Counted from the first letter of the stretch, positions 8,512 through 62,511 are shown. The stretch: 64,000 bases of DNA from an uncultured Gammaproteobacteria bacterium (GCA_905479295.1 CAJQLY010000002.1:118887-182886), one strand, 5' to 3'. Program-made: numbers and translations. The notes: generated by a model from the letters alone, not told the origin.

Positions 8512-11337
8512 ATGACGAATAAGGTCGTTATTAACGACTCGGTCCGTGCTCGCTGGCAGTCTCTTAAAACAGGCTATGCGTTTCCTCCAGCAGTGCTGGC
8601 AGCTGAAGCCCAGATTGAATGCCTGTTGAGTCAGAGTCGATTTTGCGAACAGGTGATTCGACAGCAGCCTGAATGCTTGCAGGCGATCATTCAGCAAGAG
8701 GGATTACAGCCGACGACCTACCGTACTCTATTAGAGCAAGAGTTACAGGGGGCTGGTGACGAGGCACAGTTACGTCATGGCTTAGCACGCTTTCGCAATC
8801 GTCAGATGCTGGCTATTTGTTGGCATGATTTGATCTTGCAATGTGATGTGCAGTCGGTGTTGCTAGCACTATCCGAGCTGGCTGATGTCTGTGTGCAGAT
8901 CGCTTGTCACTGTTTGCAGCAAAGCTTGAGCCAACAACATGGTGTCCCGAGAGTGGTCGCAACACCAGCAGATAATGTTGTAGAAGCAAAACAGGCGGAG
9001 TTTATTGTTGTCGCCCTAGGTAAGCTGGGTGGCCGTGAGCTTAACTTTTCATCAGATATTGATGTCATGTTTTGTTTTGATCATAACGGCTACTGTGATG
9101 GTGTTAAGGCGCTATCAAATAAAGAGTTTTTCACTAAATTAGGGCAAGCCTTGGTGCGTGTGCTGAATGACCGAGCTCAGCTGGTTTATCGCGTCGATTG
9201 TCGACTACGCCCTTTTGGTGACTCTGGTCCACTAGTGGTGAGTTTTGATCATCTACAAGAGTATTACCAAGTCCATGGTAGAGAATGGGAACGTTATGCT
9301 TTGGTTAAGGCGCGCTCTTTAAATGGTAGTGTAGCGGCACAAGAAGTGCTTAGCGCTATCTTAAAACCATTTGTTTATCGACAATATATTGATTTCACAG
9401 TGCTTCAGACCTTGCGGGAAATGAAGCATAAAATTGCGCAACAAGTGAGTCGTAAGCAACAAGTCGACCATCTCAAATTAGGGCCTGGCGGTATTCGCGA
9501 GATTGAATTTATCGCCCAACTATTACAGTTAATCAATGCTGGGCCAATGATGAGTCTGCAGACTCAATCGTTGTATAAGGCGTTGGAAGCTATCGAACAG
9601 ATGGCGTATTTATCACCACTGGAAGTAACCCGACTGTTGCAAAGCTATGAGTTTTTGCGACGTGCTGAAAATAGGCTGCAAATGTGGGATGACCGACAAG
9701 TGCATGAATTACCACGTGATGCTGAACAGCTGACCGTGCTAGCCCAGTCTATGGGCTACGATGATGTATTAGCATTCCGTTCAGCCTTGCAGGACTATCA
9801 GCAACAAGTGTCTGTCATTTTTGACAATATTGCAGCGGCACCATCAAAGGATCTACAGCCGACCGATATAGCGGAAGATTTTTGGCAAGAGTTGGTTGAA
9901 TCAGAGGATCAGTCTAAGTCAGAAGATGAGCTTGATTTACCACAGCTGTTCTTTCAGCAAGATGAAATCTTACAGCGTCTGAAGGGATTACTGAGTAGTC
10001 CGATCTATCGGACACAAGACGAAGTGGGTAGAGCACGTTTGCATGGCTTTATGCCAATTCTATTGCAACAACTGAGCAAGCGTGACGATGCAGTAGTTGT
10101 ATTGTCCCGATTGCTACCTGTATTACTCGCTATTTTGCGACGCTCAGCTTACCTACTCTTGCTGACAGAAAATGTTGGTATATTACGGCAATTAATTGCG
10201 GTGGTGGCGAGTAGCCCTTGGATTGCTAAACACGTCAGTAGTAATCCTATTCTGCTAGATGATTTGATTACAGCTGATAGTGATAAGCACCACAGAGCTG
10301 AACTACAGCAGCAATTTAAGCTCAGTATTCTGTCTCAAAAAGGGCTGGATGACGAACAAGTGCTAGAGCGAGTGAGGTTGTTTAAACATGCGGCCGAGTT
10401 ACGTATTGCCTGTGCTGATGTGCAAGGAGTGCTGCCACTGATGCAAGTGAGTGATCGTTTGAGTTGGTTGGCAGAGGTTGTGGTACAGGGTTGTTTGCAG
10501 TACCTCCAGCATCGTGAACAGCCAAGTCTGACAGATCAGCCAGCCTTGCCTAATCTGGCCGTGATTGCGTTTGGTAAATTGGGTGGTTTAGAACTAAGTT
10601 ACGGTTCGGACTTGGATTTGGTCTATCTGACAGACAGTCAATCACAGACTGACCCAGCGATGATCAAGCTGACCCGAAAGGCACAGGGTTTGAGCCGCAT
10701 GCTGAGTTTGCGTACGGTATCTGGCCAAATGTATGAAGTTGACCTGCGTTTACGACCAGATGGTAATGCTGGGCCTCTAGTCGCAACACTTCCAGCGATG
10801 CGTGAATATTATCGTTCGAGGGCTTGGTTGTGGGAATTGCAAGCCTTGGTTAGAGCGCGCTGTGTCGCTGGTGATGAAAGCATCGTACAAGCGTTTGAGC
10901 GACTACGACGTGATGTATTGTGTCAGCCACGAGAACAGCAGGCCTTAGCGCAGGAAGTGTTAGCGATGCGGCAAAAATTGATCCTAAATAAAAGCAATAC
11001 AGGCCCTCTACGGTTTAATTTGAAACACGATCTGGGAGGTATCACTGATATTGAATTTATGGTGCAATACGCGATTCTCGCAAATGCGCACCGAGAGCCA
11101 GCCCTATGTCGTTATTCAGATAACGTACGGCAGCTCACGATGCTTGCCGAGGCCGAGTTTATCGCCCCTGAAATGGCGCAGGATTTGAGCGAGATTTATT
11201 GCCAATATCGTAATGCTTCTCACCGTATGGCTTTGCAGACACAGCAAATAGGTGCTGTTGATGATGCGGATTTTTCAACACAGCGTGCGCTAGTGCAAAC
11301 GTATTGGAAGAAGTGTTTTGCGCTTTATCTAGATTAG
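8512..11337 (+). CDS. glnE: bifunctional glutamine synthetase adenylyltransferase/adenylyl-removing enzyme
   Basis: 941 aa with two nucleotidyltransferase halves (GKLGGRELNFSSDIDVMF and GKLGGLELSYGSDLDLVY). Confidence 0.95.
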   Translation: MTNKVVINDSVRARWQSLKTGYAFPPAVLAAEAQIECLLSQSRFCEQVIRQQPECLQAIIQQEGLQPTTYRTLLEQELQGAGDEAQLRHGLARFRNRQMLAICWHDLILQCDVQSVLLALSELADVCVQIACHCLQQSLSQQHGVPRVVATPADNVVEAKQAEFIVVALGKLGGRELNFSSDIDVMFCFDHNGYCDGVKALSNKEFFTKLGQALVRVLNDRAQLVYRVDCRLRPFGDSGPLVVSFDHLQEYYQVHGREWERYALVKARSLNGSVAAQEVLSAILKPFVYRQYIDFTVLQTLREMKHKIAQQVSRKQQVDHLKLGPGGIREIEFIAQLLQLINAGPMMSLQTQSLYKALEAIEQMAYLSPLEVTRLLQSYEFLRRAENRLQMWDDRQVHELPRDAEQLTVLAQSMGYDDVLAFRSALQDYQQQVSVIFDNIAAAPSKDLQPTDIAEDFWQELVESEDQSKSEDELDLPQLFFQQDEILQRLKGLLSSPIYRTQDEVGRARLHGFMPILLQQLSKRDDAVVVLSRLLPVLLAILRRSAYLLLLTENVGILRQLIAVVASSPWIAKHVSSNPILLDDLITADSDKHHRAELQQQFKLSILSQKGLDDEQVLERVRLFKHAAELRIACADVQGVLPLMQVSDRLSWLAEVVVQGCLQYLQHREQPSLTDQPALPNLAVIAFGKLGGLELSYGSDLDLVYLTDSQSQTDPAMIKLTRKAQGLSRMLSLRTVSGQMYEVDLRLRPDGNAGPLVATLPAMREYYRSRAWLWELQALVRARCVAGDESIVQAFERLRRDVLCQPREQQALAQEVLAMRQKLILNKSNTGPLRFNLKHDLGGITDIEFMVQYAILANAHREPALCRYSDNVRQLTMLAEAEFIAPEMAQDLSEIYCQYRNASHRMALQTQQIGAVDDADFSTQRALVQTYWKKCFALYLD

Positions 11338-49005: not shown

Positions 49006-50100
49006 ATGGGATTTAAGTGTGGAATTGTCGGTTTACCAAATGTTGGTAAATCAACATTATTTAATGCCTTAACTCGCGCAGAAATTGCTGCTGAGAATTA
49101 CCCATTCTGCACCATCGAGCCTAATGTGGGTATCGTGCCGGTGCCAGATCCGCGCTTAGATGCATTGGCTGCAATAGCTAAGTCAGAAAAAGTGATTCCA
49201 GCAGTGATGGAGTTTGTCGACATCGCAGGTTTAGTTGCAGGTGCGTCTAAGGGTGAAGGCTTGGGTAATCAGTTCCTAGCTAATATTCGTGAGACTGATG
49301 CCATTGCACAGGTTGTGCGCTGCTTTGAAGACGATGACGTAGTACATGTTGATGGCCGAGTTGATCCATTGAGTGATGTTGAAACTATTAACACTGAATT
49401 GATCTTGGCCGATGTTGATTCAGTTGATAAAGGCATGCTGCGATATCAAAAAGTTGCCCGCTCAGGTGATAAAGAAGCGTTGGCAAATATCGATTTATTA
49501 GAAAAGCTGGCAGCCCACCTAAACGAAGGCAAACCAGCGCGTAGTTTTGATGTTGCAGAAGACCAACGCAAAATGGTGCGTGATCTACATCTAATCACTG
49601 CAAAGCCGATGATGTACATTGCCAACATCGATGAAGACGCTTTACAAGGCAGTACTGAGTTAGCAGATCGTCTCGCGGCATTAGCGGCTGAAGAAAAAGC
49701 CCAGTTTGTCACTGTTTGCGCTCAAATCGAGGCCGAAATTATCCAATTAGAGGATGATGAGCGTGATGAGTTTCTGGCAGACCTTAATCTAACCGAGCCT
49801 GGTCTAAATCGCGTTATTCGTGCTGGCTATGAGCTACTAGGCCTGCAGACTTATTTCACCGCTGGGCCAAAAGAGGCAAGGGCATGGACTGTACGAGTAG
49901 GTGCTACTGGCCCACAAGCGGCTGGTGTGATTCACACCGACTTTGAAAAAGGATTTATCCGTGCCGAAGTTATCGCTTTTCAAGATTATATTGATGGCAA
50001 TGGTGAACAGGGTGCAAAAGATGCAGGTAAATGGCGTTTAGAGGGTAAGGAATACATCATGGTCGAAGCCGATGTTGTGCACTTCCGCTTCAATGTTTGA
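49006..50100 (+). CDS. ychF: redox-regulated ribosome-binding ATPase YchF
   Basis: 364 aa with [18 protein letters not shown] and a C-terminal TGS-like region ending in RFNV. Confidence 0.95.
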
Positions 50101-50177
50101 TATTCTACTGCGTTAGTTAAGCCCTCTTATTTGACAGGGTTTCAGTGGTCGCGTATGTTGCGGCTTCACTTCGAAAA

Positions 50178-50254
50178 GGCTATGTAGCTCAGTTGGTTAG
50201 AGCACAGCATTCATAATGCTGGGGTCGGTGGTTCGAGTCCACCCATAGCCACCA
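50178..50254 (+). tRNA. tRNA-Met (elongator, anticodon CAU)
   Basis: 77 nt. Acceptor ggctatg/catagcc, anticodon loop ttCATaa, T-arm ggtgg-ttcgagt-ccacc and encoded CCA. Near-identical in pattern to E. coli metT/metU. Confidence 0.93.
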
Positions 50255-50284
50255 TTTATACCTCCAGAATCTTCCTTTATCGTA

Positions 50285-50506
50285 TTGATTAGCTTGAGTT
50301 TTCAACTTAATGCTCAGGAGTATGGTAGACAATACGGAAGACAAACAATAATCCAATCTATACGTTCGTTGACTAAGCGTGGCATCTGTTATTTTTCACA
50401 ACTAGTTCCGTTTGATGTTCGGCATCAATATAAAAAATTTAAAATCGTTCAATCACTTAAAGTATATTTTAGGAGAGCTGCGGCAGCTTGTGCAAGGTTA
50501 TGGTGA
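50285..50506 (+). pseudogene. integrase N-terminal fragment (remnant)
   Basis: The ORF starts 31 nt after the tRNA. KRGICYFSQLVPFDVRHQYKKFKIVQSLKV resembles the RGxxYF(R)xxVPxDL...K.I..SLKT N-terminal motif of tyrosine integrases. No catalytic domain follows. Confidence 0.35.
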
Positions 50507-50707
50507 TGGGTATCAGCTAGAGCAGATGCATCTTACGATGAAGATATTATGCGCTGAGTAGTTGTTCGTATAATCATTCTTCAAACTAATACGACAGCCA
50601 TGATTAAAGTAGCTTTAGTTTACTAAGATAAAGTCAAGTATAAATAACCTGAAATCTATTTTATCTGTAAGATAGTATGCATAAATAATCACCACAAGCA
50701 CTGATAG

Positions 50708-51232
50708 ATGTTCCCAGCAAACTCAAAAACCACTGAACAAAAGCCTAACTTAACACATCATTATTTGACTGCTGTATTAGCGCTTACTGCCTTAATAACG
50801 TCACCACAAATAAAAGCTGAGGATTATTTTACTGACTTAGGCTTTTTGCCTAATGTTACTTATGAACGAAGCGTTACTTATGGCGTCTCTGCCGATGGCT
50901 CAGTAGTTGTTGGTTATAGTTACAACGCTAATAGTGATATGAAAGCGTTCCGCTGGACACTGGAAACTGGCATGGAAAGCGTGGAAGACTGGCTGAGCAA
51001 TGCGGGTGTCAGCATTGCTGCCTGAGTCAGTGGTAGTGCCAACATACTCAATGCCGTCAACATGCCTTTTAACATCAAGGGCAATGATGTCGAGCAAGAC
51101 TGGGTACGTGTGGCTGCCGAGGTCGTACATCGCTTCAGCCGTAGTAACAGACTATCGCTATCAACGACTGCTGCTAGTGTAGGCGAAGACGCTGACTTTA
51201 GTGTTGGTGCAAACTGGACTATGTTGTTTTAA
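50708..51232 (+). pseudogene. autotransporter relic (HAF-repeat N-terminus fused to barrel C-terminus, in-frame TGA)
   Basis: Signal-like N-terminus plus one HAF-type repeat (GVSADGSVVVGYS....AFRWT...GM). A TGA lies at 51023-51025. The same frame then continues to 51232 and ends in ...DFSVGANWTMLF, an autotransporter-type terminal beta-strand. Confidence 0.5.
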
Positions 51233-51339
51233 GTGCTCAGTTAGTTTGAATTGATGACTAGGCAGACCATAAGGCGATGAAAGAATTAAAACTTCATCAT
51301 TAGTCAGGGATGTTAAAAGAAGGTTAGTTGGTACTTAGC

Positions 51340-51411
51340 GGCTCTGCTGGGTCAATAGGCGCAACATTCATACTGCTGGAGTCGGTTGTTCGAGTCCGGC
51401 CATAGCCAGCA
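51340..51411 (+). pseudogene. degenerate tRNA-Met copy (att-like repeat)
   Basis: The 3' 48 nt match tRNA-Met at 41 of 48 positions by hand alignment. The T-stem pairing is broken, the end is AGCA rather than ACCA, and the 5' half has diverged. Confidence 0.7.
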
Positions 51412-51531
51412 TATTCCAAAAGCAGTAAAATCAAAAATTTCTTTTAAGCACGGCCATAATTTTTATAGCCGTTCTATTATTAGGTGTTTGCGTACTTAAC
51501 AAGGAATTGAGTTAAGTGTTGGGAGAAGGAA

Positions 51532-51981
51532 ATGTTTGAACAGATTACAGAACAGCAAATCTTACTACGATTATCTTTGGCGATGGTTGTGGGCATGCTG
51601 ATAGGGATTGATTCTTGGTATAATCGAAGAAATGCAAGTATTCGGATTTATTGTGTTGTCGCAGTAACCTCAGCGATGACTATGATGTTGATAGCCAATC
51701 AAACTGGAAATCACCCAGAAGCATTTAGTCGAGTGCTAGCGGGTTTAATTACTGGCTTTGGATTTTTAGGTGGTGGCATTATTATGCGACAGTCTGAAAC
51801 GCATCAATTATTTGGATTAACTACTGCAGCAACAATTTGGGGTTGTGGCTTAATCGGTGCTTGCTTGGGTGCTGGGCAATACAGTATTGCAGCGCATGCA
51901 ACAGTAGCAATGATCATGGTTCTCTATATTAATTTGGATAGCCTGATGCAGCGTATTGGGATTAGAAGAAAATCTAATTAA
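51532..51981 (+). CDS. MgtC/SapB family membrane protein (membrane domain only)
   Basis: 149 aa with LRLSLAMVVGMLIGID, GFGFLGGGIIMR and GLTTAATIWGCGLIGACLGAG motifs. Confidence 0.8.
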   Translation: MFEQITEQQILLRLSLAMVVGMLIGIDSWYNRRNASIRIYCVVAVTSAMTMMLIANQTGNHPEAFSRVLAGLITGFGFLGGGIIMRQSETHQLFGLTTAATIWGCGLIGACLGAGQYSIAAHATVAMIMVLYINLDSLMQRIGIRRKSN

Positions 51982-52131
51982 GGTAAGATTCAAATAGGAA
52001 AGATATGGAGGCCTGTTGCTGAGCTATATCACTTTGCTAGCTTAGGCCCTATGCGTATTAGCTATAGTTTGAGCTTAAATACCTAATTATAAGGTTAATA
52101 TAGAACTTACCGTAACCACGTAGACAGATAT

Positions 52132-52791
52132 ATGACTATTTCTGACTCAGTAGTATTTAGTATGGCTCACCATCCTTACGTGGTGGGTGGTCTTAAGTTG
52201 TTTCCTTTCCCCTTGTTTATCACATTCATACTCCTTTTTTCTTCGGCGTTTGCAGCAGAACCTATCAGTCGTGCTACTGATTGTACTGAAATGGAAGTTC
52301 AGGCAGATATTAATCCAGAATTAAGTAGAGATGAAAATCTGCAGCAATTATCTGAAATATTTTATGAGTCGTTGAATACAGTCACACATTGTGAATCTAC
52401 TGAAGATTCAGCGGATGGAGTACAATCCTCTATTGATGGGGAGGCGGCAGATTCTATGGCTAGTATTGCTGCTTCAGATATCAGTGGAACGGAAAGTGAT
52501 GAGTCCCTGTCAGAGAGTAATGCTGATATGGAGCAAAATGCCTTCGAAGATAATACTGAGTATGCGTCTGATATGGATGATCTTGAAATAACTGAGAGTG
52601 ATACAAAAGGAAAAGAGAACGGGACTCAGGCGCCTGGTGATATCCCGCCGAGTGATAATGACTCGATTTTTGAAAAGCAAATACGCGAAGCAGCAGAAAA
52701 TGAAACCGATCCAGAGGTTAGAGAACGTCTTTGGAATGAATACCGAAAGTATAAAGGCTTACCGGTAAAACCAGTTAAGGAGAAGTCATAG
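52132..52791 (+). CDS. secreted, extremely acidic low-complexity protein (system gene 1)
   Basis: Hydrophobic signal sequence ending in SSAFA/AEP. A long D/E/S-rich segment is followed by a conserved-looking basic tail, ETDPEVRERLWNEYRKYKG. The stop overlaps the next start (TAGTG). Confidence 0.7.
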   Translation: MTISDSVVFSMAHHPYVVGGLKLFPFPLFITFILLFSSAFAAEPISRATDCTEMEVQADINPELSRDENLQQLSEIFYESLNTVTHCESTEDSADGVQSSIDGEAADSMASIAASDISGTESDESLSESNADMEQNAFEDNTEYASDMDDLEITESDTKGKENGTQAPGDIPPSDNDSIFEKQIREAAENETDPEVRERLWNEYRKYKGLPVKPVKEKS

Positions 52792-54095
52792 TGTGGATCT
52801 GGGTTAAGCAAGTAATCATTTATTTGCTAGTGCTGAGTATGGTGGGTTGTAATTCACAAGCGATGTTTAACACTAAAGATGATTCGATAGACCAGTCGGA
52901 TGTCGGTCCTGCTACTTCGTCAAAGATTGAAGCATCTATAGTTGAAGAGCAGCCGATTAATCGTGGACGTAAATTAGATGTCATTATCCCTATATTTGAT
53001 TCAGGGCTAGATGATGAGGTTATTGGTGAGACCGTATGGGCAGAGCTGCGGCGTTCAGAAGCAACTATTTTCGCCAATCAATTAAAAGCAACATTAGATG
53101 CGACTGGCCAGTTTGCTGCAGTTAGAGTAACGCCAGATGCCACTGCAACAGGTGAGCTCTATATTCAAGGCAGAATAGAACAGTCTACGGGTCATGATGT
53201 TGAAATCTCATTAAGTGTTTCAAGTATTACTGGTGAAGATGTAATTGCACGCTCTGCTGCAGGTAGTTTCTCATTTGCCAAACTAATTAATCGTGATGGA
53301 CGTACTATTAAAAGCTTCGAACATACTGTCGATAAAAATTATTTTACGAATCTTAGGAATGATAAGCAGCAAGCCTATCAGCCTGTTTTTGATCAAGCCT
53401 CTGACTTTGTTGTGTCACTTTTGAAAAAATATTCGGAAGCTGAAAAGGCAGAGCTGGGCAATCTGTCTGATTTGCGTTTTGCAGCTAGTTTTTCTGAAGA
53501 TGCATTCTCTGAGTATATGGTGATTGAAAAGGGTGAGACCCATTTAGTCGGTATGCCCAGTATGGATGATCCAATGTATCAAAAAGTCAGGGCGCTTCGA
53601 GTACGAGATCAACTGTTTATCGATAATCTTCAGAATGAATATCAAGGCTTTAACCAACAGATTAATGAAAGCTATTTGTTATGGCAGGAGCAAAGCTTAG
53701 AAGAGCATGTCCTAAAGAAAGAGGCTAAAGCACGTTCAACCAAAAAGATATTAGGCGGCATCGCTTTAATCGGCTTAGCGATATTATCTGCCTCATCTAA
53801 TTCTGGGAGTAACAGTGTTGGTGATAATGCAGCTGCAACAGCTACAGTGGCAGCCGGGGTGGCTGCTGTTGGCCTAATTTCATCAGGTATCCATGATCGT
53901 AAAGAAGCCGCGATGCATAACGAAACGATCAAAGAGTTAGGTCAGTCAGTTGATATTGAGATGTCTCCACAAGTGGTTGCCTTTGAAGAGCGTGAAAAAG
54001 AGTTAGTGGGTGACTCAGCAGAGCAATTTCAACAGTGGCGTTCATTTTTAAAGACCATCTATGAGCTAGAAAAAACACCGGATGTTCAGTTGTAA
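52791..54095 (+). CDS. lipoprotein with C-terminal Gly/Ala-rich hydrophobic hairpin (system gene 2)
   Basis: GTG start and lipobox LSMVGC. The N-terminal part has a CsgG/LpoB-like pattern (weak). The C-terminal region has ILGGIALIGLAILSA...VAAGVAAVGLISSGI. Confidence 0.75.
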   Translation: MWIWVKQVIIYLLVLSMVGCNSQAMFNTKDDSIDQSDVGPATSSKIEASIVEEQPINRGRKLDVIIPIFDSGLDDEVIGETVWAELRRSEATIFANQLKATLDATGQFAAVRVTPDATATGELYIQGRIEQSTGHDVEISLSVSSITGEDVIARSAAGSFSFAKLINRDGRTIKSFEHTVDKNYFTNLRNDKQQAYQPVFDQASDFVVSLLKKYSEAEKAELGNLSDLRFAASFSEDAFSEYMVIEKGETHLVGMPSMDDPMYQKVRALRVRDQLFIDNLQNEYQGFNQQINESYLLWQEQSLEEHVLKKEAKARSTKKILGGIALIGLAILSASSNSGSNSVGDNAAATATVAAGVAAVGLISSGIHDRKEAAMHNETIKELGQSVDIEMSPQVVAFEEREKELVGDSAEQFQQWRSFLKTIYELEKTPDVQL

Positions 54096-54100
54096 ATGCT

Positions 54101-55558
54101 ATGTTGACGGAAGAGGTTGAGCTAGCAAAAGGTAATCAGCGTCAAGGTATCTTGAAGCTCTTGCTAGTATTCCTGCTGACTGGTTTTTTATTGATGGTGG
54201 TTTTTTGGTTACTGCCAAAATTAGTTTCAGAGCCAGATATAGACAATGACGAGCTAAGTAAAATAACAAATCAAAGCGCACCTTATTCATTAAAAGATAA
54301 GACGAATAATGAAACACCTGTTATCAGCTCTGAATACACACAAGAACAAGCATTGGATGCGATTAAGGCATTGGATCAGCAGTTGTTGTTAATGGCTCCT
54401 TATCAGTCTTTGCAGAATGATATAGGGCTTATGCAAACCATTGATAGTGTGCAGACGCAGGTGACTGAAGCCTTTACCCGGGCCGATTACGATGCGGTAG
54501 TGCTTGCCCTGAAAGAGCTGAGCCTTGATATTGATCAGGCAATCAATGCTGCACAATCGACAGTAGAACAAGGTTTGGAAAAGGCTAGGCAGTTATGGCG
54601 TGAGAAGCAGTTGTCGCAGTTGCAGTTAGAATTAAAGCAGATCCAGGCGATTCAAGCCGATCTGCCAGAGTGGTTAGAGCTAAATGATTTACTCATGGCA
54701 TGGCCTGAAGTGGAATCTCTATTAAGGATTTCAAAGACAGCAGGACTTGAAGGGCGCTATCAAGAGCAGCTACAAGCGTTGATCAAAATTAGTCGCTTAT
54801 CAAATGACCTACCTGAATTGGCTCAGCAGATTGCAGGAGTAAAAAGGGAGGTAGCAGAAGATCAATATAGACAAGCTATTACCAAGGCTGACGTTGCTAA
54901 GCGCATACCTGATTTAGCGCGGATGCAGGCTGCAATTAAGTTGGCTCGTGACGTGTACCCTCAACGCCCTGAGGTGACTCGTTTGACTCAAGAGCTGGCT
55001 GAGTTAAAGCGTCAGCGAGACTATCAATTATACCTAAGTCAGGCCGAGCTAAGTTTGACTAAGGATCAATGGGCATCGGCATTTAAAGATTTAAGTGCGG
55101 CTCATGATTTATATCCTAATCAACGAGACACCCTGGATAAAAAAGCCTTTGTTGCTGCATATCTTAAATTAATGCAAGAAAGTACTGAGATCTTAAATCA
55201 ACCAAGCCTGCTTACCTCTGCAGTTAAGAGAAAGCGTTCTGCAGATATATTGGATGGGATGGTTTTATATCGTAGCCTCAGTCTTCGTATGGTGAATATT
55301 GAAAAAGAACTGAGTAAACAGCTTCGACGTTATTCGAAAAAAGTAGCATTGAAGGTGCTGTCAGATAATGAGACCTATATTGAAGTTCGTAGTATTGGCA
55401 AGGTGGGTGTTGTGGCAGAGAAGATGATCTCGCTACTGCCTGGCAACTATCTATTTGAGGGTAAACGCGTTGGCTATGTAACAAAAACAGTCAAGGTGAC
55501 TATTACTCCTGAGGATTTTGATAAACAAGTGAAGGTGATTGCTAATGAGCGAATTTGA
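54101..55558 (+). CDS. N-terminally anchored helical/coiled-coil protein with C-terminal PEGA-like domain (system gene 3)
   Basis: TM helix LLLVFLLTGFLLMVVFWLL, then about 350 aa of helical repeats. The C-terminus (LLPGNYLFEGKRVGYVTKTVKVTI) is PEGA-like. Confidence 0.75.
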   Translation: MLTEEVELAKGNQRQGILKLLLVFLLTGFLLMVVFWLLPKLVSEPDIDNDELSKITNQSAPYSLKDKTNNETPVISSEYTQEQALDAIKALDQQLLLMAPYQSLQNDIGLMQTIDSVQTQVTEAFTRADYDAVVLALKELSLDIDQAINAAQSTVEQGLEKARQLWREKQLSQLQLELKQIQAIQADLPEWLELNDLLMAWPEVESLLRISKTAGLEGRYQEQLQALIKISRLSNDLPELAQQIAGVKREVAEDQYRQAITKADVAKRIPDLARMQAAIKLARDVYPQRPEVTRLTQELAELKRQRDYQLYLSQAELSLTKDQWASAFKDLSAAHDLYPNQRDTLDKKAFVAAYLKLMQESTEILNQPSLLTSAVKRKRSADILDGMVLYRSLSLRMVNIEKELSKQLRRYSKKVALKVLSDNETYIEVRSIGKVGVVAEKMISLLPGNYLFEGKRVGYVTKTVKVTITPEDFDKQVKVIANERI

Positions 55559-57518
55559 AGATCAGATTAAGCAAGCATCTTCACATCAAAATGCACGTTG
55601 GCTGATCTCTAGCATTAGCATTTCGCTGCTATTGTTGTTTATTGGCTTATACATTTTTTCTTTAACAGTCTATACCATTCAGATTGAACCACTTGCAGCA
55701 GATGAGGTTTCGACGCAGTCGATTGAGTCAGGATTCGGGTTTAGCTATAAACAAAAAGTCTTTGCCTTTTCAGATGGGACTAGCCTGCGTGTTAGTGCCG
55801 TAGGCTTTAAAGATAAAGAACTAGTCTTGAAAAGCCATGTTGAGAACGGCATTGTTAGCTTTAATCTAGAGCCTAAGTTAGCACTGGTTTCATTACAGAC
55901 CAAGTCGATGACTGTTGTTGATTGGTATCTTGATGGGCGTTTTGTTGAACGTGCTTCAAGCCTGCAACGAGAGCTCGATCCAGGTGAGTATGTATTCAGC
56001 GTGCAGTCTAATTATCATCAAGTGATCGATGATAGTGTCAGTGTTAAAGCGGGTTTAGACGTTAATCGCACGTACTCTTTATTGCCATTGGAAGGCACAC
56101 TGACGATCCATGCAGATGTATCATCAGCAAAGCTTACGGTTGATGCGATGCCTTATAAGTTAGGGGATGTGCTGAGTAAGCAGGCAGCTAAGTATGCGAT
56201 TGAGGTTAGTGCGCCGGGTTACTATCCTATCGAAGAAGATATCTCGTTAGATAAGAAAGATCTCAGGGTTCAACGACATTATAAACTTCGACCTAAACCT
56301 ATTGCGTTGACGCTTAAGCTACAACCTAAGGGTGGTGTATTATTAGCTAATGGCCTTCAGCTCAAGCCTGATAGCGCTATAAAATTACCGTATCAAAATC
56401 AGTTTATCTTTGAATATGCAAAACCAGGCTATGTTAGCCAAGTGCTACAGCGTAGCTTTAAACCTGGAGAACAGTTCAAGCTGGATTTCTCACTAGTAGA
56501 ACAAAAGGCTGCGGTTAGTATTAGTGCGAATGTTGAATCAGATATTTATATTCAAGGGCAGCGTGTTGCGACGACCCCTGCAACATTACAGCTACTGACA
56601 AAGAAACAGACTATAGAGCTGCGTAAAAAAGGCTATCGCAGTGTTAAGCAGACGATCATGCCGAATGCTAAACAGCTGACTAAGTTGCAAATGACACTGT
56701 ATACCGAGACACAGGCACGGTTGTTAGAGGCAAAGAATGTCTACATCAATTCGGTGGGCATTGAGTTTCAATTGGTCAAGCCACAGGGCCAGCAATTTAC
56801 CATGGGTGGGTCACGTGATGAGCCGGGGCAGAGGGCGAACGAATTCCAGCGTAAAGTGCGATTAGAGCGACCTTTTTATGTTGCTAGTACTGAATTGACG
56901 GAATATCAATTTTCAGCCCGCAACGCGAATTCTAATCAACCACTAGTGAACACTGCATGGGAACAGGTTGCCGTATTTTGTAATCAGTTAAGCCTGAAAG
57001 AAGGATTGCAGCCGTTCTATTTATTTCGTGGTACTAAATACATCGGTTTTGAAGCTAAGGCGAATGGCTATAGGATGATCACTGAAGCAGAGTGGGAGTT
57101 TATGGCGCGTGTTTATCAGCGTGACAAGAAAACTACATTTGCTTGGGGGAATCAGGATCAAGTACCAGCCGAGGCGGGTAATCTTGCTGATGCCGAAAGC
57201 CAATTAGCGCGCTATATTCCACGTTATAAAGATGGTGTCAGTGGCCTAGCTAATATTAGAAGCTATGCAGTGGAATTGTCAGGCCTGTTTGATCAGATTG
57301 GTAATGCCAGTGAATGGGTACATGATATTTATGACCTAACACCGGCTGATCAACGAGTGGTGTATGTTGACCCTTTGGGACTGTCTAAAGGTAATAACCA
57401 TGTGATTAAAGGTTCAAGTTATTTGTCTGCCTCTAAGACTGAAGTTAGGGCAGCCTTTCGGGATGGCTCTGCTAGCCCAAGGCCTGAGCTAGGTTTTCGT
57501 TTAGCCCGGTATTTATAA
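55545..57518 (+). CDS. membrane-anchored PEGA-repeat protein with C-terminal FGE-sulfatase (SUMF1) fold (system gene 4)
   Basis: TM helix ISISLLLLFIGLYIFSLTVY and about 5 PEGA-like repeats (e.g. IYIQGQRVATTPATLQL...KKGYRSVKQTI). The FGE fold shows FTMGG, GYRMITEAEWEF, GNASEWVHD, VIKGSSY and LGFRLAR. The ATG at 55545 overlaps the upstream gene by 14 nt. Confidence 0.85.
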   Translation: MSEFEDQIKQASSHQNARWLISSISISLLLLFIGLYIFSLTVYTIQIEPLAADEVSTQSIESGFGFSYKQKVFAFSDGTSLRVSAVGFKDKELVLKSHVENGIVSFNLEPKLALVSLQTKSMTVVDWYLDGRFVERASSLQRELDPGEYVFSVQSNYHQVIDDSVSVKAGLDVNRTYSLLPLEGTLTIHADVSSAKLTVDAMPYKLGDVLSKQAAKYAIEVSAPGYYPIEEDISLDKKDLRVQRHYKLRPKPIALTLKLQPKGGVLLANGLQLKPDSAIKLPYQNQFIFEYAKPGYVSQVLQRSFKPGEQFKLDFSLVEQKAAVSISANVESDIYIQGQRVATTPATLQLLTKKQTIELRKKGYRSVKQTIMPNAKQLTKLQMTLYTETQARLLEAKNVYINSVGIEFQLVKPQGQQFTMGGSRDEPGQRANEFQRKVRLERPFYVASTELTEYQFSARNANSNQPLVNTAWEQVAVFCNQLSLKEGLQPFYLFRGTKYIGFEAKANGYRMITEAEWEFMARVYQRDKKTTFAWGNQDQVPAEAGNLADAESQLARYIPRYKDGVSGLANIRSYAVELSGLFDQIGNASEWVHDIYDLTPADQRVVYVDPLGLSKGNNHVIKGSSYLSASKTEVRAAFRDGSASPRPELGFRLARYL

Positions 57519-57543
57519 AATATCCGAAAAAGGATGCAATATT

Positions 57544-57666
57544 ATGAATAAAAAATTATTAGTAGGGTTTCTGTGTTTTCTGATGCTTTGCCTAACGGCT
57601 GTTGGTATTACCTATGCAGCTAAATTGAGTGTAGGTGTTCCTGTTAGCTTTCCGGTAGATATTTAA
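57544..57666 (+). CDS. unannotated 40-aa hydrophobic peptide (system gene 5)
   Basis: MNKKLLVGFLCFLMLCLTAVGITYAAKLSVGVPVSFPVDI. It is below the ORF-track length cutoff. The stop overlaps the MotA/ExbB start (TAATG). Confidence 0.5.
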   Translation: MNKKLLVGFLCFLMLCLTAVGITYAAKLSVGVPVSFPVDI

Positions 57667-58433
57667 TGACTAAATCAATTCAAGGCATTATCGCCTTAAC
57701 GCTGTCTGCAATTTTAGTCCATGGCTTTTATGTGGTTTTAGTAGAGCCTAATGTTGCGCTAGCACAAGCCTTAATTATACAGGGTGATGGTGAGCAACAA
57801 CGCTCTATTTGGATTATTTTAAAAGACTTTGAGCAGGAAGCATGTCTGATCTTAATGTTCTGGGCGATCTATCTGATTGCTGAGAAATTCATTCATATCA
57901 CGAAGACTAATTATTTATTTGAGGTCGACTTCTTCAAGAACTGTGATATGAGCAGTACTGCTATTAGTACGGTAGTTGATGATCTAGAAGACTTAAAAGG
58001 TGGCATCGCTAACACGCCCTTAATCCGTACACTTAAAGTATCACTACGACGATTTTTGTTGTCGCAAGATATTCATGCAACGGCAGAGGTTATCGAGGCA
58101 GAGTGTGTTGCCCTAGGTAACAAAAATGAAGCCGAGAATTCAATGATCCGTTATTTGATATGGGCGATTCCATCAATAGGTTTCATCGGTACGGTGCGGG
58201 GTATTGGTCAGGCCTTAGCGCAGGCTGATAAAGCTTTAGCTGGTGATATATCTGGTATGACAAATAGTTTGGGTGTCGCTTTCAATTCGACCTTGGTTGC
58301 ATTATTCGTCAGTATGATCCTGATGTTTCTGCTATATCAATTGCAACGTGCGCAAGACTCCTTAACCGTATCAGTGAATGATTATTGCCAGAATAAAGTA
58401 TTAGATCCGCTAAGCCGAAGCCGTCTTAACTAG
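57666..58433 (+). CDS. MotA/TolQ/ExbB proton-channel family protein (system gene 6)
   Basis: 255 aa with 3 TM helices. Has the family C-terminal signature IPSIGFIGTVRGIGQAL ... GVAFNSTLVALFVSMILMFL. Confidence 0.88.
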   Translation: MTKSIQGIIALTLSAILVHGFYVVLVEPNVALAQALIIQGDGEQQRSIWIILKDFEQEACLILMFWAIYLIAEKFIHITKTNYLFEVDFFKNCDMSSTAISTVVDDLEDLKGGIANTPLIRTLKVSLRRFLLSQDIHATAEVIEAECVALGNKNEAENSMIRYLIWAIPSIGFIGTVRGIGQALAQADKALAGDISGMTNSLGVAFNSTLVALFVSMILMFLLYQLQRAQDSLTVSVNDYCQNKVLDPLSRSRLN

Positions 58434-58442
58434 ATAGATAAG

Positions 58443-59504
58443 ATGCGCCGCAATCCTACCTCTAACTTAGCGTTCATCGATATCATGAGTTGTGGTTTAG
58501 GGGCGGTTATCCTGATCTTGGTATTATTAAAAAATCAGCAGACAACACCAGATGAGCTGGTTGAGTTGGAGCATGCTGGTTTAGATCAGCAGATAGCAGC
58601 TTTGCTGAGTCAGCGACAAGCGGCTATGGCAAAGACTGAAGCTAAACAATCAGCGTTGTCAAAGCTAGACCAAGAGATCAATGATTTACGCGCTAGACAG
58701 TCAGTTATTGCTTCTATTAAGAGCACTACACTGAGTACGATTGAACGCCTGCAATTAAAGATTCAATCCAGTCAGCAAGGCCTCAGTAGCTTACTTGAAA
58801 AAGAGAAGATCAATCCGATCGAGACACAAACAATACGACAGCAAGATTATTTGGTTGGCCTGAATATAGAAGGCCAACGTATTGCTATATTGGTCGATAG
58901 TAGTGCGTCAATGACTGCACGTGAGCTGATTAGCATTACGAACTACAAGGTTCAATCAGAGGCTAAACGTAGATCAGCAGCTAAATGGAAAAGAACTTTA
59001 CGCATAGTTCAGTGGCTGATGGCGAGAGCTCCGGAAGACTCAGAGCTACTGGTGATGTCGTTTTCTGATCAGGCAATTATACAAAGTCAGCCTAAGTGGA
59101 TCTCAGTTAAAGATGAGAAAGCATTGGCAGTGACTCAGAAAGCAATACGCTCAGTCACACCTTATGGTGCAACAAATTTAGAGAAGGCAATGGCTAAGGT
59201 GCTGAAGCAGCGCCCAGACGCGATTTATCTGATAACCGATGGCTTGCCAACTCGAGGTTTAAGTGAGTCATCCATCTTATCCTCTGGCGGCTGTGGTGGT
59301 ATGACAGCATTAAAGAAAACTGTATCTGGTGAGTGTCGTGTCACACTATTGCGGCAGGCAGCTAGTCTAACAAATCCATTCCGCGGCAAACTTTCAATTA
59401 TCTTGTTACCTTTAGAGGGTGATCCCCAGGCGGCTCCAGAGCTGTCTAAATGGGTGTTAAGTACAGGTGGTACTTTAATTAGCCCGGCGGCTACTTGGCC
59501 ATGA
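58443..59504 (+). CDS. ExbD/TolR-like TM anchor - coiled coil - vWA domain protein (system gene 7)
   Basis: The N-terminus LAFIDIMSCGLGAVILILVLL parallels ExbD PFIDVMLVLLIIF, including the Asp. A coiled coil spans about aa 45-125. The vWA domain has MIDAS elements DSSAS, GATN and ITDG. Confidence 0.85.
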   Translation: MRRNPTSNLAFIDIMSCGLGAVILILVLLKNQQTTPDELVELEHAGLDQQIAALLSQRQAAMAKTEAKQSALSKLDQEINDLRARQSVIASIKSTTLSTIERLQLKIQSSQQGLSSLLEKEKINPIETQTIRQQDYLVGLNIEGQRIAILVDSSASMTARELISITNYKVQSEAKRRSAAKWKRTLRIVQWLMARAPEDSELLVMSFSDQAIIQSQPKWISVKDEKALAVTQKAIRSVTPYGATNLEKAMAKVLKQRPDAIYLITDGLPTRGLSESSILSSGGCGGMTALKKTVSGECRVTLLRQAASLTNPFRGKLSIILLPLEGDPQAAPELSKWVLSTGGTLISPAATWP

Positions 59505-60424
59505 TGCGCAGAGAAGCACCAGATGCATTTGGTACTGCCTTTCTGGATATTATTTCCTGTGGCTTTGGTGCAATTGTATTGTTGATTCTTATCTTTAAAT
59601 TTGAGCCTGATGTCAGTGGTCTTATTTCGGTTGAAAGCGATGATGCAAAGGCTAAGATTAAACAGCTCTATGGTCTTATGGATGAGCTGAAAACAGAATC
59701 AGCAGTCGATAGTGAGCAGTCTACTAAGGCCAAAGCAGAAATATTAAAGGCAGCACGGGCTAAACTTGAATATGCAATGACTGAGACTGCCAAATTGCAA
59801 CAGACCTCAACTGAGCTTAAGAAGCAACTTGGTGCATTGCAAAAAAAGGTTAAGAAGCAACAGATTGCAGGCACCTCAGAGGGTGATCAATCACGTCAGG
59901 ATGATGAAGTTGGTGGTATTCCAGTCGATCGTGATTATGTCATTTTTATTGTTGATACCTCCGGCAGTATGAAAGAGATCTGGCGTAAGGTGATGCGTGA
60001 GATAGAGGATATATTGACCGTCCACCCCCAAGTGAAGGGCTTCCAGATCATTAATGATAATGGCAACTATCTGGTTAGTGGCTATGCTGGTAAGTGGATG
60101 AAAGATACACCGAGTATGAGAAAACGTGTAATGAAGCTGTTTAGCTCTTGGGCAAGCATCTCAAATAGTAGCCCAGTTGAAGGGATTGAAACCGCCTTAA
60201 CACGGTATTCAAAATACACTAAAAATCTTTCGATTTATGTCATCGGTGATGATTTCACCGGCGCAAATTTTGATCAGGTTATTTCACGTACGCGCCAGCT
60301 GAATAAAGGACGCGCGCGTATCCATGCACTCAACTTTATCTCACCTAATGCATCTACTGATCGCTTCAGTACTTTGATGCGAGAGATCTGTCGCGAAAAC
60401 CAAGGGACCTTCCTGACTTTTTAA
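59501..60424 (+). CDS. ExbD/TolR-like TM anchor - coiled coil - vWA domain protein, paralog (system gene 8)
   Basis: The ATG overlaps the upstream stop (ATGA). N-terminus is AFLDIISCGFGAIVLLILIF. It has a Lys/Gln-rich coiled coil and a vWA domain with DTSGS and VIGDD. Confidence 0.85.
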   Translation: MMRREAPDAFGTAFLDIISCGFGAIVLLILIFKFEPDVSGLISVESDDAKAKIKQLYGLMDELKTESAVDSEQSTKAKAEILKAARAKLEYAMTETAKLQQTSTELKKQLGALQKKVKKQQIAGTSEGDQSRQDDEVGGIPVDRDYVIFIVDTSGSMKEIWRKVMREIEDILTVHPQVKGFQIINDNGNYLVSGYAGKWMKDTPSMRKRVMKLFSSWASISNSSPVEGIETALTRYSKYTKNLSIYVIGDDFTGANFDQVISRTRQLNKGRARIHALNFISPNASTDRFSTLMREICRENQGTFLTF

Positions 60425-60441
60425 TCCTAAGATAAAGCTGG

Positions 60442-60903
60442 CTACTGTTTAGCTGAGAAGTGTTTACTCAGGTATCTATCTAATTCGTTTGCAAAGGATT
60501 TTCGGTCGGTTTGTCCGTAAGGGGCTTGGCCACCTGACTGGATACCACTGCCACGCAAGGTATCCATGAAGTCACGCATGCTGAGTATCGATTTGATGGT
60601 GTTCGCTGTGTACATCTCACCACGTGGGTTTAATGCAGCTGCATTTTTCTCAATGACTTCAGCAGCTAAGGGAATATCACTAGTAATTACCAGATCACCA
60701 GCAGTCACTTGCCTTACAATCTCATCATCTGCTACATCAAAGCCATCAGGAACCTGTAGCATTTTGATATTGCTTAGTCGCGGTTTATTAATAGCTTGAT
60801 TGGCGACTAAAATAACTTCAACACCAGTACGTTCTGCTGCACGAAATAGAATATCTTTGGCAGGTACTGGGCATGCATCTGCATCTACCCAAATCTTCAT
60901 CAT
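60442..60903 (-). CDS. yaiI: YaiI/YqxD family protein (UPF0178)
   Basis: 153 aa with the family hallmark [12 protein letters not shown]. Confidence 0.85.
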
Positions 60904-60918
60904 TAAGGCCTGAGTAAG

Positions 60919-62511
60919 TTATTGATCATCAACAGTAAGTAGGTATTCATCATAGGTACCATGAAAATTAATCATTTTCTTATCCTTGATTTCAACGATA
61001 TGAGTGGCTAATGAGGAAACGAATTCACGGTCATGGCTGACAAAAATTAGTGTTCCCTCATAATTCGCTAGGGCAAGGTTGAGTGCTTCGATTGATTCCA
61101 TATCTAAATGATTGGTTGGCTCATCCATAATCAGGACATTGGTTTCCAACATCATCAGTTTTCCAAATAGTAGGCGATTCTTTTCACCGCCTGAGCAGAC
61201 TGCTGCCTTCTTGTTGAAATCATCAGTTGAAAACAATAAGCGACCAAGAGTTGCACGTACAATCTCTTCATTATGATGAGGTTTACGCCATTGACTCATC
61301 CAGTCAAATAGATTCATGTCATGATCAAAATCGTTATTACTATCTTGAGGGCAATAGCCTAAGGTCGCATTTTCTGACCATTTAATGACGCCAGTATTAG
61401 CCTTTAATTCGTCTATTAAGCAACGTAGAAAAGTACTTTTTCCAGTGCCGTTCTCACCAATAACAGCCATGCGACTACCAGCTTCAATGATGAATCCACC
61501 ATCACTGAATAGAGTCTCATCATCATAGCCATGACTGAGTTTTTCTACTGTTAGGGCTTGGCGTTGTATCTTCTTACTTTGCGTAAAGCGAATAAACGGA
61601 TTGACACGGCTTGACGGTTTGATGTCTTCGAGTTTTATCTTCTCGATTTGCTTGGCACGTGAAGTAGCCTGTTTTGCCTTTGATGCATTTGCTGAAAAAC
61701 GGCTGACAAATTGCTGTAGATCAGCAATCTGTGCCTTTTTCTTTGCATTCTCATTCTGTGAATGTTCGCGTACAGCGGTTGAAGCAATCATGAAATCATC
61801 ATAGTTGCCTGGGTAAACGCGTAATTCACCAAAATCCATATCTGCAATATGGGTGCAGACGGAGTTCAGGAAGTGTCTATCATGAGAGATGATGATAATA
61901 GTGCTTTTACGTTCAACAATAACGTTTTCTAACCAACGGATGGTGTGGATATCTAAGTTATTGGTTGGCTCATCAAGTAATAGAATATCTGGATCAGCAA
62001 ACAAAGCCTGTGCTAATAGTACGCGTAACTTCCAACCGGGAGCGACTTCACTCATTGGCCCACTATGGAATGATTCGGCGATGCCGGCACTCATTAGTAG
62101 TTCACCAGCACGACTGTCCGCACTATAGCCATCTAATTCAGCAAATTCGACCTCAAGGTCAGCGACTTTCATGCCATCTTCATCGCTCATCTCGGGTAAT
62201 GAATAAATGCGATCTCGTTCTTTTTTGACTTCCCATAAGCGACTATGCCCCATGATTACTGTGTCGACTACGTTATAGTCTTCAAAGGCAAATTGATCTT
62301 GGTGTAATTTACCAACACGCTCATTTGGTGTGATTGAGACATTGCCTGCACTGGGTGCAAGTGTGCCATCCAGAATCTTCATGAAAGTGGATTTACCACA
62401 ACCATTGGCACCGATCAGGCCATAACGATTACCTTCTCCAAACTTTACTGAGATGTCTTCAAATAAAGGTTTGGCGCCAAATTGCATAGTGATGTTTGCA
62501 GTAGAGATCAA
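60919..62511 (-). CDS. ybiT: ABC-F family ATPase, YbiT-like
   Basis: 530 aa with two ABC cassettes (GANGCGKST / GENGTGKST; LSGG-type CSGGEKNR). Collinear with my recollection of E. coli YbiT along its whole length. Confidence 0.9.

Follow-up and report, generated by a model that had tools for sequence, protein, structure and literature searches.

The stretch analysed, 64,000 nucleotides (nt) from an uncultured Gammaproteobacteria bacterium (GCA_905479295.1, CAJQLY010000002.1:118887-182886; "the window" denotes the whole of it), carries seven tightly packed genes on the + strand at 52132-60424, labelled here g1 to g7. The last three encode a channel subunit of the MotA/TolQ/ExbB family (g5) and two paralogs (g6 and g7), each of which joins a membrane helix bearing a conserved Asp to a predicted coiled coil and a vWA (von Willebrand factor A) domain, divergent in g7. 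The three products were judged likely to form a motor of the '5:2' type known from MotAB, ExbBD and TolQR, powered by the proton-motive force. The genes, and the parts of the two paralogs with their metal-ion-dependent adhesion sites (MIDAS), are listed below; lengths are in amino acids (aa), and 'TPH-vWA' is the published name for genes of the g6/g7 type.

52132-52791, + strand: g1, secreted acidic protein listed with 219 aa; Met11 may be the true start
52791-54095, + strand: g2, 434 aa, predicted lipoprotein of no known family
54101-55558, + strand: g3, 485 aa, membrane helix, helical/TPR region and PEGA-like end
55539-57518, + strand: g4, 659 aa, membrane helix, PEGA repeats and FGE-sulfatase-like domain
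57666-58433, + strand: g5, 255 aa, MotA/TolQ/ExbB-family channel subunit
58443-59504, + strand: g6, 353 aa, ATG start, first TPH-vWA paralog
58467-58529, + strand: g6 membrane helix, residues about 9-29; Asp13 codon at 58479-58481
58572-58802, + strand: g6 coiled coil (predicted), residues 44-120
58878-59501, + strand: g6 vWA domain, residues 146-353; MIDAS residues D152/S154/S156, T244 and D266
59501-60424, + strand: g7, 307 aa, second TPH-vWA paralog
59534-59596, + strand: g7 membrane helix, residues about 12-32; Asp16 codon at 59546-59548
59636-59866, + strand: g7 coiled coil (predicted), residues 46-122
59936-60421, + strand: g7 divergent vWA domain (predicted), residues 146-307; DTSGS at 152-156, S221-N-S223 and G249-D250-D251

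An earlier description of this DNA, made without database searches (the sequence-only reading), had reported the open reading frames (ORFs) of g6 and g7 together with their N-termini, and both were found exactly as described, save that the start of g7 was moved to 59501. The g7 ORF as delimited mechanically begins at a TTG at 59495, while at 59501 an ATG shares the sequence ATGA with the g6 stop; the latter is probably the true start, because the orthologs are 307 aa long and because of this overlap. g6 and g7 are translationally coupled, and 10 nt separate the g5 stop from the g6 start. Among the ORFs of the window, no spare one for an additional gene was found from g4 to the end of g7.

The channel gene that had been noted next to the pair is g5. 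Its product matched the Pfam family MotA_ExbB (PF01618) with 47.5 bits (cut-off 22.9, E = 1.9e-12, residues 117-232) and TolQ/ExbB in an hhalign comparison (E = 8.8e-5), in which T176 and T209 aligned with the two pore Thr, which are T145/T178 in TolQ and T148/T181 in ExbB. Both Thr motifs were at least 98% conserved among 79 orthologs. Within residues 1-78 (57666-57900), hydrophobic segments at residues 8-26 and 60-78 precede the conserved channel region. The usual description of Escherichia coli TolQ and ExbB has a single N-terminal hydrophobic segment ahead of the channel region, and the topology of g5 may be MotA-like with four helices, of which just three segments passed a crude threshold.

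The relationship of g6 and g7 as tandem paralogs, also proposed earlier, was established by BLASTP (E = 1e-9 over the first 160 residues) and by profile-profile comparison of the two families (99.3% probability, E = 2.9e-20), where the similarity begins in the helix, spans the coil and reaches the TDG/GDD strand. Orthologs were studied in 80 loci from other species, each of about 21 kb. Conservation of the helix Asp among orthologs had been set beforehand as a test of the sequence-only reading, and the residue was found within F-[LI]-D-[IV]-[MIV] in both paralogs in 80/80 loci where the motif was parsable. In a 22-sequence alignment of the motif FxDxxxCGxGA, the F, D, C, G, G and A were invariant across both families. 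The invariant helix residues are A10, F11, D13, M15, C17, G18, L19, G20 and A21 in the g6 family (21 sequences, 34-92% identity to g6), and F14, L15, D16, I18, S19, C20, G21, F22, G23 and A24 in the g7 family. The Asp lies near the cytoplasmic end of the helix, 17 residues ahead of a conserved Lys. Certain fixed residues distinguish the paralogs: position Asp+2 is Met in 79/79 g6 sequences and Ile or Val in 78/79 g7 sequences, and position Asp+6 is Leu in 79/79 and Phe in 78/79, respectively. No His was present in the helices of either alignment, so the SHLS signature of TolA/TonB is missing.

A search of databases for proteins joining a helix of this kind to a vWA domain, suggested by the sequence-only reading, found the architecture to be widespread: a helix-only profile of 36 columns, built from both families, matched 1736 representatives (clusters at 50% identity) at E ≤ 0.001 among 1.84 billion proteins. 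On such recurrence in sequence databases, the Asp-helix pattern is not a product of chance. Full-length matches among the best 150 measured 302-369 aa, and no other architecture with this helix was seen, the shorter matches inspected being truncated or frameshifted copies. Two matches of the profile, P0336 and P0372, carry a third Asp-helix variant, FNLSFLDIMSCGFGAVVLVFLIIDH, after which comes an acidic helical region of another kind; P0336 runs on into sugar-nucleotide-transferase-like sequence and is probably an assembly chimera or a frameshift. The variant may represent a further subfamily.

Beyond the helix, a heptad coiled coil and a vWA domain had been said to stand in place of the ExbD/TolR periplasmic domain, which was borne out by Pfam, AlphaFold2, Foldseek and hydrophobic periodicity. 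Besides the membrane helix and an alpha/beta domain, AlphaFold2 predicted one long helix at residues 44-120 of g6, and at 46-68 plus 74-122 of g7, giving a stalk of about 77 residues in each paralog. The family-averaged hydrophobicity peaked at a period of 3.5 (g6) and 3.55 (g7), with power at period 3.5 of 52 and 35, respectively, against 4 ± 4 in shuffled sequences, a level reached by 0 of 2000 shuffles. Core positions in g6 fall at Asp+3 and Asp+6 (modulo 7) over offsets 27-104 without register shift, which corresponds to about 11 heptads. The spacing from the Asp to the MIDAS is 130-144 residues in g6 (median 135) and 130-142 in g7 (median 136), and the two paralogs of a locus agree within ±3 residues in 66 of the 80 loci. 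Heptad frames counted from the Asp are the same in the distal half of the stalk and one residue apart in the proximal half.

The vWA domain of g6 was recognised by Pfam (VWA_2, 35.8 bits, cut-off 27) and modelled by AlphaFold2 with a predicted local distance difference test score (pLDDT) above 90. Its MIDAS, described earlier as complete-looking, has five metal-site residues (D152, S154, S156, T244 and D266) that are invariant in the 21-sequence family, as are Cys284 and Cys298. Foldseek returned vWA domains for g6, including those of CMG2, ITIH1, TRAP and BatB. No Pfam domain was detected in g7; nearly all of the 50 Foldseek matches listed for it were vWA-fold proteins, and the vWA matches over both paralogs also include integrin I domains, TFIIH p44 and Rpn10. 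The g7 model has an overall pLDDT of 57 (about 50-83 in the domain region) and, being of low confidence, was used for fold class only. The sequence-only reading had seen DTSGS and VIGDD in g7 with an unclear middle Thr element, and this description is accurate: DTSGSM is present in 80/80 loci with D152-T-S-G-S156 invariant, G249-D250-D251 is likewise invariant together with S221, S223, P225, E227 and G228, and the place of the Thr element is occupied by S221-x-S223. Taking sequence and model together, g7 has a vWA domain, a divergent one with a putative atypical metal site.

Linkage of the genes was assessed by tblastn and ORF-level BLAST in the 57 loci with at least 6.7 kb of upstream flank. 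Genes g4-g7 were present in all 57, g2 and g3 in 56 and g1 in 54, and the seven were colinear in 53 loci from several phyla. Both g6 and g7 were found in 80/80 loci, and the order g5-g6-g7 was kept in every locus with enough flank. Outside g1-g7, gene content is not conserved from locus to locus. Three alphaproteobacterial loci (L040, L060 and L066) have g1-g3 inverted and downstream; since they are adjacent even then, a functional linkage is argued. The locus L059, from a Methylomonas bin, has g4-g7, with g1-g3 undetected in the full 10 kb upstream flank, and g1 was undetected in L048 and L055. Some lineages may do without the upstream half of the module, or may have it in a diverged or relocated form. 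A tblastn search was made with E. coli TolQ, TolR, ExbB, ExbD, MotA and MotB; none of the six gave a match in the window or in the 80 loci, in a search that is insensitive, since g5 itself was missed. At BLAST sensitivity, no other candidate inner subunit is found in the cluster, or within 10 kb of it in the 80 loci.

An unusual feature was observed at the start of g6 orthologs in 15 of the 80 loci (L009, L013, L014, L029, L032, L038, L041, L049, L051, L063, L064, L068, L076, L077 and L080), mostly of zeta- and alphaproteobacteria, where no ATG, GTG or TTG lies between the upstream stop and the Asp helix. About 10-70 nt upstream of locus position 10001, all 15 have a conserved CTG with AAA or AGA after it, and most of these sites have a purine-rich AGG or GAG a little upstream. 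This suggests a conserved CTG start codon of g6 in those loci, the start of g6 in the window being ATG.

A pattern scan with one genome per species gave at least 600 stretches, of which at least 582 were confirmed, and a word-indexed search gave at least 1720 clusters at 90% identity for g6 and at least 5812 for g7. The carriers include alpha-, beta-, gamma- and zetaproteobacteria as well as Binatia, Nitrospirales and a Desulfobacula bin, and many of them are planktonic marine bacteria. The proteins are named in databases merely as 'VWA domain-containing' or 'hypothetical', and searches of the literature for the seven-gene combination or for the database product names found nothing relevant.

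The four upstream genes all encode signal, lipoprotein or N-terminal anchor sequences. The g1 product is secreted and acidic (47 Asp+Glu versus 15 Lys+Arg), with a signal-like helix, two conserved Cys, and a variable acidic/Ser/Gly linker that leads to a highly conserved C-terminal DIPPxDNDS...QIRxAAxxExDP...LWNEYRKYKG; it also has an ASSxxxGTE motif. In g2, an invariant Cys20 follows a signal-like helix, residues 320-367 form a Gly/Ala-rich hydrophobic segment, the C-terminal tail is conserved, and a weak glycine-zipper match to YiaD was obtained (E = 0.021). Neither g1 nor g2 had a Pfam match or, in profile searches, a sequence relative among solved structures. The g3 product has one hydrophobic segment (residues 20-38) and a conserved C-terminal segment of the LLPGNYLFEGKRVGY type, and one of its orthologs scored barely above the Pfam cut-offs for TPR_2 and TPR_19. 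For g4, Pfam gave FGE-sulfatase (E = 8.6e-25) and PEGA (E = 6.5e-14), and weak similarity to GldK, GldJ and PorK was detected, GldK being the best NCBIfam match. Both catalytic Cys of the Streptomyces and human FGE are replaced in its FGE-like domain (57021-57518, residues about 500-659), which, by this comparison, is probably a binding or scaffold part and not an enzyme, as in GldK/PorK. From these targeting sequences, the products of the module look periplasmic or envelope-located. The vWA domains are likewise predicted to lie in the periplasm, because Arg/Lys residues precede the helix, because g6 has the Cys284/Cys298 pair and because g1-g4 carry export signals.

Weak matches of g5 to ZorA (PADLOC, E = 5.7e-5; NCBIfam, E = 0.009) raised the idea of a Zorya-like anti-phage defence system with the MotA-like channel as its sensor, an idea to which the variation of flanking genes between genomes and a slightly lower guanine-plus-cytosine (G+C) content over 50-62 kb would be favourable. 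We consider it extremely improbable. The ZorA match is confined to the channel region shared by MotA and ExbB; nothing resembling ZorB, ZorC, ZorD, a nuclease or another effector was found in Pfam, NCBIfam and PADLOC scans; the partner proteins look periplasmic or envelope-located; and the seven-gene order is fixed across several phyla. The hallmarks of Zorya, in contrast, are a long cytoplasmic tail of ZorA, a peptidoglycan-binding domain in ZorB, and ZorC/D or ZorE. Among the PADLOC defence models, the other six proteins had no match except a weak unnamed model for g2, and as the defence-system models gave just the weak ZorA channel match, this explanation was rejected. The G+C content itself is 0.41-0.44 over the module and its close surroundings (50001-62000) versus 0.44-0.47 in the preceding 50 kb, a difference that could reflect horizontal acquisition or merely the Lys/Glu/Asn-rich composition of the proteins. 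A gene convergent to the module, at 60919-62511 on the - strand, encodes a protein of 530 aa that has two ATP-binding-cassette-like motifs. In 11 other loci from several classes (Nitrosomonadaceae, alphaproteobacteria and Binatia among them), a homolog is encoded no more than 10 kb from the module, and the co-location may be a matter of chance, as the family is common.

The likely motor formed by g5-g7 is favoured mainly by context: g5 keeps both pore Thr, at BLAST sensitivity no other candidate inner subunit was found, and a buried Asp within a six-residue invariant motif across taxa exceeds what a passive anchor needs. An independent publication with AlphaFold 3 models came to the same conclusion (PMC12204202). 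From the observed domain content, conservation and gene linkage we infer an assembly, stoichiometry, heterodimeric axle, topology, ligand and cellular role along the following lines. A g5 pentamer would surround a pair of single-pass helices, to which g6 and g7 most likely contribute one each, with g6 D13 and g7 D16 facing g5 T176 and T209. As protons cross the membrane, the Asp residues would be alternately protonated, and the pentamer would rotate relative to the dimer. A parallel coiled coil of about 11 heptads, roughly 11 nm by rule-of-thumb geometry, would enter the periplasm and be followed by a flexible linker of about 25 residues and the vWA head, whose MIDAS may hold a partner through a metal ion. 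The load or anchor held by the heads would probably be one or more of g1-g4, or a cell-wall component; with the heads anchored g5 would turn, and with the heads free the shaft would turn. The data are consistent with the 5:1:1 heterodimer and the transmission of force to the MIDAS domains that had been proposed earlier. 'Adhesion' was the weakest word of that proposal; because the whole module looks periplasmic, the partner is more likely to be a protein within the envelope than a substrate at the surface. Envelope maintenance or uptake also fits planktonic carriers better than surface adhesion or gliding.

Several results weigh against the motor. Full-length g6 and g7 had no match to Pfam ExbD (PF02472) at E ≤ 1, and the ExbD and MotB_plug models found nothing at E ≤ 10 in the N-termini (41-47 residues) of g6, g7 and two distant orthologs; as positive controls, the ExbD model scored about 35 bits on the first 45 residues of E. 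coli ExbD/TolR and MotB_plug (PF13677) scored 63.7 bits on MotB. A search of 177,635 solved-structure sequences of the Protein Data Bank with the helix-only profile found no chain of ExbD, TolR or MotB. Hhalign comparisons of the helix with ExbD/TolR and MotB scored 11-15 (P 0.008-0.06, probabilities below 6%), the match to MotB being weak at about 14.5. The published case for such a motor is a computational prediction made without experiment (PMC12204202), and the likeness of g6/g7 to its Idiomarina loihiensis seed rests on described features, all of which match. The canonical MIDAS Thr is missing from g7, with the invariant S221-x-S223 in its position. In the AlphaFold2 single-chain models, confidence is low for the helix region. 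Stalk lengths of the paralogs covary weakly (Pearson 0.27, Spearman not significant), and the match of their heptad frames has a sizeable probability of arising by chance.

The profile scores of the helix against ExbD, TolR and MotB lie close to those of controls. Against ExbD/TolR alone, g6 and g7 scored 14.3 and 11.2 (P 0.01 and 0.06), respectively, and controls 7.7-10.4, the ExbD/TolR profile having been built from just three sequences; the control families, namely the N-terminal hydrophobic segments of g1-g4, scored 7.5-12.4 (P 0.08-0.27). The Asp fell in register with ExbD D25 or MotB D32 in 4/4 hhalign comparisons, all of them weak alignments. The g6/g7 helix is thus marginally, and not significantly, more ExbD/MotB-like than a generic helix by profile score. 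That the helices should outscore generic membrane helices was the other test set beforehand for the designation 'ExbD/TolR-type'. Its outcome is borderline, with the Asp in register and scores slightly above those of controls on one side, and no Pfam match and scores short of significance on the other. Because no significant profile similarity to ExbD/TolR/MotB was obtained, the term denotes, as far as these comparisons indicate, a functional analogy or at most a remote homology and not a demonstrable family membership, and g6 and g7 are not to be filed in the ExbD/TolR or MotB families. Cohesin SA-2, the sole match of the helix-only profile among the solved-structure sequences, was discarded as a chance match, and the full-length g6 profile returned only coiled-coil noise from them.

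If the helices of g6 and g7 were plain anchors of the BatA/BatB kind, or peripheral partners resembling TolA/TonB, the Asp would have some other use, and the partner of g5 would be an ExbD/TolR encoded elsewhere, if it had one at all. The lack of significant profile matches just described agrees with this, as do the BatB-type vWA proteins among the fold matches and the existence of a separate class of vWA proteins with TolA/TonB-like helices (PMC12204202). However, both paralogs keep F, D, C, G, G and A unchanged over several phyla, which is not normal for anchors; an Asp charge that is not put to use would be costly in a helix of 21 residues; there is no His, and hence no TolA/TonB SHLS signature; at BLAST sensitivity no ExbD/TolR gene lies beside g5 in the 80 loci; and g5 retains the two Thr that in known motors lie opposite the Asp. 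The Bacteroides aerotolerance operon shares with the module the membrane-tethered vWA domains of BatA/BatB and a TPR protein encoded alongside, but MoxR and DUF58 genes belong to the Bat operons, and a MotA/ExbB gene does not. We know of no report of an Asp motif in the Bat helices. On balance, plain anchors or peripheral partners were considered very unlikely.

It is also conceivable, though improbable, that the same motor occurs as two kinds of 5:2 complex, with g6 and g7 each homodimeric. To our knowledge, the structurally characterised inner subunits MotB, ExbD and TolR are all homodimers, and the complete helix motif and full coiled coil of each paralog, together with the weak stalk-length covariation, would suit such complexes. 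Against them stand the 1:1 co-occurrence of g6 and g7 in 80/80 loci and their translational coupling, the paralog-specific fixed helix residues, the almost equal stalk lengths with close heptad frames, the heteromeric precedent of AglQ/AglS, and the use of the pair in a published AlphaFold 3 model (PMC12204202). A mixed 5:1:1 complex of g5, g6 and g7 would thus be more likely than two homodimeric ones. The precedent comes from AglR-AglQ-AglS of Myxococcus gliding and from the tolQ genes with two tolR-like genes of the PVC group, which, like the present cluster, combine one channel gene with two unlike inner-subunit genes; by analogy, this arrangement suggests a heteromeric axle. AglQ/AglS differ in being ordinary TolR-like proteins, and the Myxococcus vWA adhesin CglB is a separate outer-membrane lipoprotein, whereas here the vWA domain is fused to the inner subunit.

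With a heteromeric g5-g7 motor as the preferred reading, its relation to known systems can be set out. The closest is that of the paired 'TPH-vWA' genes beside tolQ homologs, with a conserved Asp, for which AlphaFold 3 puts the Asp pair of the paper's own example inside a conserved Thr ring (PMC12204202, Mol Biol Evol 2025). Common to both are single-helix-tethered vWA proteins encoded directly after a tolQ-like gene as heterologous pairs, the lack of a tolR/exbD/motB gene, a helix with an Asp and without an SHLS/His motif, a TolQ-like protein with a conserved Thr ring, and occurrence in Proteobacteria. The text of that paper is silent on the four genes upstream, with no occurrence of 'sulfatase' or 'PEGA', and on the heptad coiled coil, the matched stalk lengths and the atypical second MIDAS. 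The same motor type is therefore already published as a prediction and is not a discovery of this work; new here are the seven-gene module, the matching stalk lengths and the paralog-specific fixed helix residues.

ExbB-ExbD and TolQ-TolR share with g5 the Pfam family and the two pore Thr, and with g6 and g7 a single-pass, N-in inner subunit whose Asp lies near the cytoplasmic end and whose gene is directly downstream of the channel gene. They differ in that g6 and g7 lack the ExbD/TolR periplasmic domain and a Pfam ExbD match, in that the helix is of the small-residue-rich FxDxxxCGxGA type and not of the PFIDVMLVLL type, and in that two unlike inner subunits carry their own coiled coil and vWA domain, compared with the separate TonB/TolA. 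With MotA-MotB and PomA-PomB, the likeness is that the Asp helix is weakly in register with MotB D32; a MotB_plug match, an OmpA-like domain and nearby flagellar genes are lacking, the Pfam search of g6 and g7 having given neither MotB_plug nor an OmpA-like peptidoglycan-binding domain. GldLM/PorLM are likewise 5:2-type motors whose inner subunit has a long periplasmic shaft, and the accompanying GldK/PorK have, like g4, an FGE-sulfatase fold without the catalytic Cys, PorK being among the solved-structure matches of g4. However, no sequence relation links g5-g7 to GldL/GldM; GldK/PorK are lipoproteins, unlike g4 with its N-terminal membrane helix and PEGA repeats; and GldN/PorN and other type IX components are absent here, so that the resemblance is architectural only.

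A wider proposal, which we put forward tentatively and regard as rather doubtful, is that g1-g7 together constitute an undescribed proton-driven machine spanning the envelope. In such a machine, the heterodimeric axle would rotate or pull inside the g5 pentamer, the two non-identical MIDAS heads would grip the conserved Asp/Glu-rich motifs of g1, or else g2, and g3 and g4 would form a periplasmic scaffold, like the GldK/PorK rings beside GldLM/PorLM. The fixed seven-gene context names four candidate partners, and the ligand and role are therefore testable in cultured hosts of the module, for example Methylophaga, Magnetovibrio and Aestuariispira. The 5:2 motors (MotAB, ExbBD, TolQR, GldLM and ZorAB) are the main route by which bacteria turn the proton gradient into mechanical work in the envelope, and inner subunits with their own shaft and metal-dependent heads would deliver that work directly, without an adaptor of the TonB/TolA type. 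If the proposal of an envelope-spanning machine is true, the machine would represent a fourth functional class of 5:2 output, after flagellar rotation, the force transduction of Ton/Tol, and type IX secretion/gliding, and it would occur in at least several hundred species, streamlined marine plankton included.

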